The translations under genes were made by a program, and so were the position numbers. 58,013 nucleotides of DNA from a virus (lineage: Duplodnaviria > Heunggongvirae > Uroviricota > Caudoviricetes), in IMG/VR virus record IMGVR_UViG_3300045988_029198, positions 1-58,013 of that record. One strand, written 5' to 3'. Positions 333-2,189 of this stretch are shown here, one piece after another (the stretch's first letter is position 1; each line of letters begins with the position of its first letter). The notes beneath the pieces are model-generated. The model saw nothing but the letters and a program-made list of their open reading frames with translations. It had not been told where the DNA came from and did not search any database.

Positions 333-2189
333 ATGTCAGATGCTTACGTTCACGATATTGAAAACTATCCTAATGTTTTCCTGTTCGGTGCTATTCACGC
401 GTTAACTGAAACGCTTTATATTTTTGAGATTTCACATCGTCGCGATGATCGTCAGGCTTTTTACCTGTTCACAGAATATTTGCGTGAACATCGTGATGAA
501 GAAATTGGTTATAACAATCTGGGTTACGACTATCCTGTTCAGCATTCTATTTTGAACAACATCATACATATCACCAACGCAGACATTTATAAAAAAGGTG
601 ATTCAATAATTAACGCTGGTGATGAAAATCGTTTTGCTCATACGGTGTGGGAAAAAGACTGGATAGTCCCCCAGCTTGATTTGTATAAAATTCATCATTT
701 CGACAATCAGGCAAAACGAACAAGTCTGAAAACACTTGAATTCAATATGAGAATGGAAAACATTGAAGACCTCCCGTTTACACCGGGGACTTATTTAACC
801 GATTCTCAAATTGATACGCTTCGTCAATATCTGATACACGATTTGAAAGCAACTTTGATGCTTTATAAACACAGTAAAAAGCTGATAGATTTTCGTCGTG
901 AACTTTCTGCTAAATACGGTCGTAATTTCATGAACCATAATGACACGAAAATCGGTAAAGACTATTTCATTATGGAACTTGAAAAATCAGGTATTCAATG
1001 TTTCGAACCGGGTAGCGGAAAACCACGACAGACGCACAGACCATCAATCGCATTGAACAGTGTGATTTTCCCTTATGTCCGTTTTGAACAGCCTGAATTT
1101 AATCGTGTTCTTAACTGGTTACGTCAGCAGGTCATCACTGAAACAAAAGGTGTATTTACAGATTTAAGCGCAGACATTAACGGGTTCTCGTTTGATTTTG
1201 GTACGGGTGGTATCCACGGGTCTATTGAGTCTCAAACTATCAGGTCCACTGAAAATTATGTGATCATCGATCTGGACGTTGCCAGTTTTTACCCGAACCT
1301 TGCGATCAGTAATGAACTTTATCCGGCACATCTGGGAAAACAATTTTGCACCATTTATAAAAATGTTTACGACATGCGTTCCAGTTACCCGAAAGGTACA
1401 CCAGAAAATGCAATGTTAAAACTGGCGTTAAACGGTGTGTATGGTGACAGTAATAACGTATACAGTCCATTCTACGATCCTGCTTATACAATGGCTATTA
1501 CGATTAATGGACAGTTACTTTTGTGCATGTTGGCTGAAGAACTTCTGAAAATCCCTGGTTTGTCCATGATCCAGGCTAACACAGATGGTCTTACGGTTTA
1601 CGTACCACGAGTGTTTACCGGACAAGTAGAACAGGTTCGTCACGCGTGGGAAAAATTAACCAGACTCCAGCTTGAAGAAGCGATTTATGACGTGATGTTT
1701 ATTCGCGATGTAAATAATTACATCGCTGTTTATGAAGGCGGTAAGAAAGTTAAACGTAAAGGCGCTTATTGTCACAGTGTTGATCTGGGTTGGCATCAAA
1801 ACCACAGTATGCAGGTTGTTGCAAAAGCGGCTGAAGCAGCACTGGTACACAATAAAGACATTCATGATTTTATAACATCACACGAAGACATTCACGATTT
1901 CATGTTAGTGACGAAAGTACCGCGTAACAGCAAGTTATTATGGGGTGATAAACAGGTTCAGAACATTACCCGTTATTACGTCAGTACAGATGGTGCACCT
2001 TTGACAAAAGTCATGCCACCGCTGGCAAAATCACTGAAACTGAACCCTGATGCGCCTGAACGCCGCATGTCCGTGTGCAAAGGTTGGTTGACCACTGAGT
2101 GCAACGACATGAAACGTTTTAACCGGGCAACGCTAAATTATGATTTTTACATCAAAGAAGCTGAAAAACTCGTTGCACCACTTCGGTAA
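333..2189 (+). CDS. DNA polymerase, family B (compact, with 3'-5' exonuclease motifs)
   Basis: ORF track 618 aa; Exo I DIE, Exo II GYDY, Exo III YLIHD; PolB motif A DLDVASFYPNL, motif B KLALNGVYG, motif C region NTDG. Confidence 0.75.
   Translation: MSDAYVHDIENYPNVFLFGAIHALTETLYIFEISHRRDDRQAFYLFTEYLREHRDEEIGYNNLGYDYPVQHSILNNIIHITNADIYKKGDSIINAGDENRFAHTVWEKDWIVPQLDLYKIHHFDNQAKRTSLKTLEFNMRMENIEDLPFTPGTYLTDSQIDTLRQYLIHDLKATLMLYKHSKKLIDFRRELSAKYGRNFMNHNDTKIGKDYFIMELEKSGIQCFEPGSGKPRQTHRPSIALNSVIFPYVRFEQPEFNRVLNWLRQQVITETKGVFTDLSADINGFSFDFGTGGIHGSIESQTIRSTENYVIIDLDVASFYPNLAISNELYPAHLGKQFCTIYKNVYDMRSSYPKGTPENAMLKLALNGVYGDSNNVYSPFYDPAYTMAITINGQLLLCMLAEELLKIPGLSMIQANTDGLTVYVPRVFTGQVEQVRHAWEKLTRLQLEEAIYDVMFIRDVNNYIAVYEGGKKVKRKGAYCHSVDLGWHQNHSMQVVAKAAEAALVHNKDIHDFITSHEDIHDFMLVTKVPRNSKLLWGDKQVQNITRYYVSTDGAPLTKVMPPLAKSLKLNPDAPERRMSVCKGWLTTECNDMKRFNRATLNYDFYIKEAEKLVAPLR

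Follow-up and report, generated by a model that had tools for sequence, protein, structure and literature searches.

We analysed a 58,013-nt stretch of tailed-phage DNA (IMG/VR record IMGVR_UViG_3300045988_029198; 'the window' hereafter, by which we mean this entire sequence) and in particular a gene near its start that encodes a family-B DNA polymerase (PolB). An earlier note, made from the sequence alone, had described this enzyme as a PolB of 618 amino acids with all three exonuclease motifs; the open reading frame (ORF) is indeed intact, and ExoI, ExoII and ExoIII were all found in it. Motifs were read from the translation and placed by regular-expression matching, with the following result:

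333..2189, + strand, gene for a family-B DNA polymerase of the NTDG/'crAss-like' phage PolB group; ATG-initiated ORF of 618 amino acids
354..362, + strand, ExoI, D8-I-E10, at the extreme N-terminus (translation, alignment)
513..530, + strand, ExoII, N61..D66 (NNLGYD), with D66 invariant; context G59-Y-N-N ('GYN')
828..842, + strand, ExoIII, Y166-LIH-D170 (translation, alignment)
1269..1295, + strand, motif A, D313-L-D315-VASFYP (next residue N), with D315 as catalytic Asp
1419..1445, + strand, motif B, K363-LALNGVYG, 48 residues past motif A
1578..1589, + strand, motif C variant N416-T-D418-G ('NTDG'), the hallmark of the group, with catalytic D418 kept
1713..1721, + strand, N461-N-Y463 at the PolB KxY position, aligning to KKY of archaeal PolB

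The inferred domains of the protein are an exonuclease (residues ~1-195), a linker and N-palm (~196-310), palm and fingers (~311-470) and a thumb (~471-618). The motifs of a DEDDy exonuclease, ExoI (DxE), ExoII (Nx2-3[FY]D) and ExoIII (Yx3D), all lie N-terminal to the polymerase domain, in which motifs A (DxxSLYPS), B (KxxxNSxYG) and C ((Y)xDTD) follow in that order; the first Asp of DTD is an Asn, and the catalytic second Asp is retained. Conservation was read from an alignment of the window PolB with 41 cluster representatives at 41-52% identity (42 sequences): D66, D315, K363, N416, T417, D418 and G419 are invariant, while D8, E10, Y166 and D170 are each conserved in at least 90% of the sequences. 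Since the catalytic residues are conserved, the enzyme is predicted to be active both as a polymerase and as a proofreading exonuclease. Also of note is the 80-nt spacer between the stop codon of the upstream gene, whose product is a protein that binds single-stranded DNA (SSB), and the polymerase start codon: it holds a 7-bp hairpin (293..312, + strand; ATGGGGT...GCCCCAT, with 4 G-C pairs), followed by TTACTTAT. This hairpin is terminator-like with a weak T tract, and could act as a weak terminator or attenuator, or as an RNA-processing site.

Assignment of the protein to family B draws on several lines of evidence. It matches PHROG 1252, 'DNA polymerase', at 1.3e-214. An initial homologue search gave only relatives that are 97-100% identical, and the deep alignment was built instead from a search of representatives. 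Because a single-sequence phmmer search of the PDB was marginal (archaeal PolB and E. coli Pol II, E 0.014-0.25), the family profile was used for that comparison: it matched 68 PDB sequences, and among the matches listed all are primer-dependent PolBs, with archaeal PolB ranked best (5e-7), followed by the African swine fever virus (ASFV) polymerase, Pol alpha, Pol II and Pol epsilon. An AlphaFold2 model computed from the 42-sequence alignment (predicted local distance difference test, 95.3; predicted template-modelling score, 0.90) retrieved, as its top 50 Foldseek matches in the PDB, exclusively archaeal or eukaryotic-type PolBs, the ASFV polymerase and Pol alpha among them (E ~1e-14). In this model the protein has the PolB fold, that is, an exonuclease with a right-hand palm, fingers and thumb. 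Among the predicted viral structures in BFVD, its nearest neighbours are phage PolBs of 592-673 residues (template-modelling score 0.74-0.94), including those of crAss-like phages, Lactococcus P087 and Enterococcus phages; T4-like and giant-virus PolBs rank after these, and there is no protein-primed enzyme in the top 50 BFVD matches. We also considered whether a PolA had been mistaken for a PolB, and rejected this idea: the fold, like the spacing of motif B and the DTD-type motif C, is that of a PolB.

The window PolB has its exonuclease/palm/fingers/thumb fold and its order of motifs in common with the cores of archaeal PolB (9°N/KOD/Tgo), E. coli Pol II, Pol alpha and Pol epsilon. It differs from them in that the N-terminal domain is absent, DTD is changed to NTD and KxY to NNY, and no Pfam PolB model is matched; the structure-based identity to these cores is only 10-16%. 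When the family profile was compared by hhalign with four reference polymerases, the following values were obtained:

crAss002 PolB: 100%, E 5e-50, 600 aligned columns, full length
E. coli Pol II: 83.7%, across motifs A-C
T4 gp43: 11.9%, exonuclease only
phi29 polymerase: 1.7%, ExoII only

The ranking given by hmmsearch with the same profile was similar, except that T4 gp43 was placed slightly above Pol II; phi29 came last, with negative bits.

The window PolB is a member of a large group of phage PolBs that has been described both as 'PolIIphages' and as 'crAss-like'. When 1.84 billion 50%-identity representatives were searched exhaustively with HMMER, the family was found in 4,856 clusters at E<=1e-3 and in 2,066 at E<=1e-30. 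The best 150 representatives have a median length of 658 residues (range 486-950; 560-700 in 114/150); NTDG is motif C in 142 of these 150, and NNY or NSY occupies the KxY position in 113. ExoI stands at median residue 8 in 119 family representatives. By tblastn, the family is found in 969 phage records, of which the hosts and phages include Vibrio, Rheinheimera (Barbavirus), Klebsiella, Pseudomonas (PaMx42), Xanthomonas, Rhodobacter, Rhizobium, Queuovirinae (CAjan, JenP2), Serratia JS26, Leuconostoc, Enterococcus and crAss002, the last matching the window PolB at 2e-20.

Published classifications place this group as follows. The NTDG motif is diagnostic of the 'PolIIphages' subgroup of RNA-primed PolBs, named for their similarity to Pol II (Kazlauskas & Venclovas 2011, PMC3201878). 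The largest clade of Caudovirales PolBs was subsequently described as a sister group of Pol epsilon rather than a derivative of bacterial Pol II (Kazlauskas et al. 2016, PMC4889955), and the 'crAss-like' group as one that is divergent within the EpsilonN-like clade and shows 'profound' differences in both KxY and motif C (Kazlauskas et al. 2020, PMC7544198). The deviations that we see in the window PolB are exactly those two. On the other hand, the Pol II-like clade (E. coli Pol II, T4-like, B5) is defined by a 'GWN' ExoII with a conserved Trp (PMC7544198); the window PolB has GYN at this point, and so does not belong to that clade.

A second question is why the enzyme is small. At 618 residues it is shorter than E. 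coli Pol II (783 residues) and T4 gp43 (898 residues), and the earlier note had pointed out that it is smaller than typical RNA-primed PolBs. The spacing of its motifs compares with that of three reference enzymes as follows:

Window PolB: ExoI at residue 8; A to B 48 residues; B to C 53 residues
E. coli Pol II: ExoI at residue 156; A to B 74 residues; B to C 52 residues
T4 gp43: ExoI at residue 112; A to B 149 residues; B to C 61 residues
phi29 polymerase: ExoI at residue 9; A to B 134 residues (holding TPR1); B to C 73 residues (holding TPR2)

Since ExoI lies at residue 8, no PolB N-terminal domain stands ahead of it, and it is this absence, together with short fingers (A to B), that makes the enzyme compact. 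The same A-to-B and B-to-C distances leave no space for TPR1 or TPR2 insertions. The phi29-type, protein-primed PolBs do resemble the window PolB in their length, their N-terminal ExoI and their family-B palm, but they differ from it in having TPR1 and TPR2 and inverted terminal repeats, and the similarity of profiles is limited to ExoII. The small size is therefore unrelated to any affinity with protein-primed enzymes, and the anomaly implied by the earlier note (a size nearer to that of those enzymes) does not survive: 618 residues are typical of the group, the TPR insertions are absent, and the phi29 profile is not matched. By both family membership and length distribution, the enzyme falls in an ordinary clade of primer-dependent phage PolBs of comparable length, which is the outcome that the note had itself named as speaking against its proposal.

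With other members of the 'PolIIphages'/'crAss-like' group, the window PolB has in common NTDG, a divergent KxY, a comparable length, and an occurrence in tailed phages of 25-95 kb that have a primase. Relative to longer members it is a minimal version, without N-terminal extensions and without the insertions near residues 275 and 565; nothing qualitative differs. The alignments of many homologues fall into two or three segments, broken near query residues 275-280 and 565 (e.g., Klebsiella phage FZ14, NC_071133; Vibrio phage LMAVpVPP, PQ284950; Rheinheimera Barba phages), and some of these split homologues are annotated as two 'DNA polymerase' coding sequences around a hypothetical gene. This pattern suggests that domains, inteins or homing-endonuclease genes have repeatedly been inserted at fixed points of the PolBs of this group.

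The window itself is, in essence, the whole genome of a 9NA-like siphophage (Sashavirus/Nonanavirus), a conclusion that follows from its matches to known phages: its first 25 kb are ~96% identical to Sashavirus BDX09P1 and to Escherichia phage KarinMuster (Bas82), with the match covering 81% of the length of each, 94% identical to Salmonella phages Sasha and Sergei, and ~82% identical to 9NA. The DNA polymerases of 9NA, Sasha, Sergei, KarinMuster (Bas82) and the E. coli phage AVIO78A differ from the window PolB by strain-level substitutions only (AVIO78A, 98.5% protein identity). The last 79 nt of the window are an exact direct repeat of its first 79 nt, which fits a circular assembly, and no inverted terminal repeat was found on comparing the two ends. 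Thus, where the earlier note had read the genome as circularly permuted and had proposed to determine the structure of its ends, the direct overlap fits a circular or permuted genome and speaks against the linear ends of a protein-primed one. For 9NA, Sasha, Sergei and Solent, pac-site-directed headful packaging has been reported (Zeng et al. 2019, as cited in PMC8954984).

The genes around the polymerase comprise the following:

57335..58013 and 80..252, across the contig junction, + strand, gene for a gp2.5-like (DUF2815-like) ssDNA-binding protein; PHROG 7011, 'Gp2.5-like ssDNA binding protein', 1e-97
1..252, + strand, 3' part of this SSB gene; bases 1-79 duplicate the last 79 of the window, and the stop codon ends at 252
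56174..57319, + strand, DUF2800/PD-(D/E)XK (Cas4/RecB-like) nuclease; PF10926, 8e-58, 196.8 bits (cut-off 21); PF12705 (PDDEXK_1), 6e-7, 30.1 bits; PHROG 69, 'exonuclease'
55413..56174, + strand, first gene of the rightward replication operon, 253 residues, Ala/Pro-rich; no family match
53581..55242, - strand, SF2 (ResIII/SNF2-type) helicase, divergently transcribed (domain and PHROG scans; 36.6% identical homologue in a pair of Vibrio phages)
53048..53539, - strand, endonuclease; PHROG 93
50418..52772, - strand, primase-helicase with an N-terminal primase/prim-pol region, then NrS-1-pol helix-bundle, D5_N and DUF5906 (SF3 helicase) domains (Pfam); PHROG 1829, 'DNA primase', 1.9e-229

The D5-like primase-helicase that the earlier note had mentioned is accordingly present. 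Its NrS-1 polymerase helix-bundle domain (PF22763, 1.3e-21) lies ahead of D5_N and the SF3 helicase, and its primase part may be a prim-pol able to make DNA rather than RNA primers. With PF10991 (Enc34_ssDNA-bd, formerly DUF2815) the gp2.5-like SSB reaches 25.2 bits, slightly short of the cut-off of 26 bits, and it has a weak match (E 0.1) in the PDB to 4jg2, deposited as 'Phage-related protein'; Enc34 is the prototype phage of DUF2815. The label 'DUF2815-like' is fair for this protein, if borderline. Both the start and the end of the contig lie within a perfect 30-bp tandem repeat (57935..58013 and 1..111) that encodes TPAAAPVAAP in the linker of the SSB. The frame of the SSB gene is broken by a naive end-to-start join, and restored once the 79-nt overlap is removed; the repeat has at least ~5 copies in the window versus ~11 in Bas82. 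The 253-residue ORF was considered as a short clamp-like processivity factor, and dropped: it is Ala/Pro-rich and of low complexity, and it matches no family. Downstream of the polymerase there is an ORF of 178 residues that matched no known family.

That DUF2800 and the DUF2815-like protein stand directly upstream of the polymerase is as the earlier note had stated; the oddity that it saw in their company with a PolB, rather than a PolA, is not borne out. The DNA polymerase genes of tailed phages have repeatedly been swapped in situ (Yutin et al. 2024, PMC11348598), and in the clade of the window a cassette of DUF2800, gp2.5-like SSB and DNA polymerase has been published in whose polymerase slot either a PolB or a PolA is found. 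In this Clade 3 (Sashavirus, Nonanavirus, Gorganvirus and Vibrio phages) PolB is basal and was exchanged for PolA once; Vibrio phages 1.089.O (PolB) and 1.237.B (PolA), with 99.5% average nucleotide identity, exemplify the swap; Clade 1 (Casjensviridae) has mostly PolA, with several PolB replacements (all PMC11348598). We re-verified the swap in the Vibrio pair: both genomes encode homologues of the window's DUF2800 (27% identity, 4e-30), SSB (36%, 7e-22) and SF2 helicase (37%, 1e-97), in the same order, and the slot after the SSB is taken in one genome by a 697-residue protein with 50.5% identity to the window PolB, and in the other by an 820-residue PF00476 PolA. The 'PolA-type' neighbours of the window PolB are explained by this swapping. 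The window belongs to the same Clade 3, with the same cassette and the basal PolB state; no swap is seen in the window itself, and Bas82 has the same annotated gene order of DUF2800, Gp2.5-like SSB and DNA polymerase.

Other phages with a PolB of this group vary in the genes that accompany it. Vibrio phage 159E36-2b has DUF2800 (1.6e-50) and an SSB that is a genuine PF10991 member (8e-19), together with a primase and a group PolB (43% identity). Barba has a primase annotated from its Toprim domain (PF13662), the Leuconostoc phage and EfaCPT1 have a small prim-pol, and crAss002 has an annotated DNA primase and DNA helicase. In most of these contexts the stretch examined includes a primase gene; no such gene is annotated in the stretches examined for the more distant relatives CAjan, PaMx42 and the Rhizobium phage, in which a beta-clamp-like protein is paired with the group PolB. 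In those three, the polymerase has directly upstream a gene with the annotation of a clamp or processivity factor (CAjan 5853..6806, PaMx42 5712..6851 and Rhizobium phage 6823..7797 of the stretches examined), with a beta-clamp Pfam match that is weak and confined to CAjan (PF02767, 1.7e-4). The gp2.5-like SSB of 9NA-like phages occupies the position of this clamp gene.

Taken together, these data make it very probable that the window PolB is the replicative, proofreading, primer-dependent family-B polymerase of a 9NA-like siphophage, and a 'PolIIphages'/'crAss-like' enzyme that is divergent within the EpsilonN-like clade. Several observations weigh against this interpretation. The Pfam PolB models (DNA_pol_B and DNA_pol_B_exo1) do not match the protein at E<=0.01, and the NCBIfam scan gave a sole match, to Pol II, of 13.6 bits, which is below threshold; as no PolB model of either collection reaches threshold, the assignment from sequence depends on profiles, motifs and a structure that is predicted, not solved. 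In addition, no clamp homologue adjoins the polymerase, unlike the situation in the CAjan, Rhizobium and PaMx42 relatives, our search of the PDB and the literature found no biochemically or structurally characterised member of the group, and the EpsilonN-like placement is drawn from the literature (PMC7544198, PMC11348598) and not from a full PolB tree of our own. The missed Pfam match is a limit of curated models for a divergent group, and no evidence against family B.

As to enzymology, primer chemistry, protein contacts and mode of replication, we infer the following scheme. The primase-helicase (50418..52772), an AEP-type primase joined to an SF3 helicase, would open the duplex and lay short primers, of RNA or DNA; the PolB would extend these by way of its catalytic D315 and D418, and edit with its DEDDy exonuclease (D8, E10, D66, Y166 and D170). 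The gp2.5-like SSB, encoded just upstream, would coat the displaced strand and aid strand separation and perhaps processivity. Recombination or concatemer intermediates may be processed by the DUF2800 nuclease and the SF2 helicase, and from these a pac/headful terminase would cut circularly permuted genomes. The PolB fills the DNA polymerase slot of a conserved DUF2800-SSB-polymerase cassette, the slot in which related phages have either this PolB or a PolA.

Of the alternatives, the one that survives best, and that we nevertheless hold to be improbable, is that the PolB is an accessory enzyme for repair, translesion synthesis or recombination, in the manner of E. coli Pol II, with bulk replication left to the host's Pol III. 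The original naming of the group for its likeness to Pol II (PMC3201878) and the hhalign value for Pol II can be read in this way, as can the adjoining recombination-type nuclease (DUF2800) and annealing-type SSB, and the lack of a clamp gene beside the polymerase. However, this PolB is the sole DNA polymerase among the replication genes examined, and it is embedded in a replication operon with a primase-helicase, a helicase and an SSB. Moreover, a PolA fills the same slot in the sister phage of the Vibrio pair, as is to be expected of the slot of an essential replicase, and both its GYN motif and the published position of the crAss-like group (Kazlauskas 2020, PMC7544198) set the enzyme outside the Pol II-like clade.

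Less plausible still, and in our judgement very improbable, is a primer-independent enzyme similar to the piPolBs, which would start chains de novo and make the separate primase partly redundant. The replacement by NNY of KxY, which contacts the primer terminus in canonical PolBs, might be taken as a sign of this, and the absence of a characterised group member from our search leaves room for unusual priming. Against it, piPolBs cluster with protein-primed PolBs (PMC7544198), a cluster to which our family has no affinity, and a primase or prim-pol occurs near the group PolB in 9NA-like phages, Vibrio 159E36-2b, Barba, Leuconostoc, crAss002 and EfaCPT1.

Finally, a protein-primed PolB of phi29/PRD1 type, which would use a terminal protein to start replication at the termini of a linear genome, is essentially refuted: a length near that of phi29 polymerase (572-575 residues) and an ExoI at the extreme N-terminus are what speak for it, whereas the short A-to-B and B-to-C distances, the hhalign and hmmsearch results with phi29, the lack of any such PolB among the PDB profile matches listed or the top 50 in BFVD, and the presence of a dedicated primase-helicase all speak against it, and the circular contig, the absence of inverted terminal repeats and the pac/headful packaging reported for close relatives (as cited in PMC8954984) argue strongly against terminal-protein-primed replication. 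A look for a terminal protein beside the polymerase, as had been proposed in the earlier note, found the SSB gene upstream and the 178-residue ORF without known family downstream, it being understood that terminal proteins have no universal signature.

The window has several other features that deserve mention. Just downstream of the polymerase operon lies an N6/N4 DNA methyltransferase gene (3327..4220, + strand; PF01555, 4e-33), and at the position equivalent to 25573..25983 (- strand) Bas82 annotates a second, small methyltransferase. A complete endosialidase tailspike is encoded at 5869..8868 (+ strand), with End_N_terminal, beta-propeller, beta-barrel and tail-spike domains and an S74 chaperone; at this position Bas82 has a different, shorter tail fibre. 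The tailspike would be specific for the K1 polysialic-acid capsule, and is carried on a Sashavirus backbone. Between the tailspike and the tail genes, at 8905..9315 (- strand), there is a second SSB, of E. coli type (PF00436, 2e-26; 136 residues), for which the match begins at profile position 28; alongside the gp2.5-like protein, this gives the phage two unrelated SSBs. A homing-endonuclease-like ORF (16106..17017, + strand; DUF723, T5orf172 and zinc-ribbon matches) is flanked by the tape-measure and tail-chaperone genes, on the strand opposite to theirs, and Bas82 has an 'endonuclease' at the equivalent place. Near-perfect 21-bp tandem repeats (4.6 copies) occupy 44295..44391, within an ORF at 43704..44516, with shorter arrays at 43585..43624 and 26101..26151; these could be coding, heptad-like repeats or iteron-like sites.

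The gene, its family, the hallmark motif and the interchangeability with PolA in this clade are already published. What the window adds is a member close to the minimal architecture of the group. The polymerase in question is very common among phages and yet missed by Pfam and NCBIfam, and automatic pipelines often label it 'hypothetical'. Bearing in mind that the group covers crAss-like gut phages and Queuovirinae, a representative from an E. coli phage could serve as a model. We think it unlikely, although less so than any of the alternatives considered above, that the NTDG/crAss-like PolBs have properties beyond those of textbook PolBs, arising from the loss of the N-terminal domain, the Asn in place of the first Asp of DTD, and NNY in place of KxY. 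If they did, clamp-independent processivity by way of the adjacent gp2.5-like SSB would be possible, as would a preference for extending DNA primers made by the NrS-1-like prim-pol/helicase, and the minimal, 618-residue member would be a convenient model enzyme.

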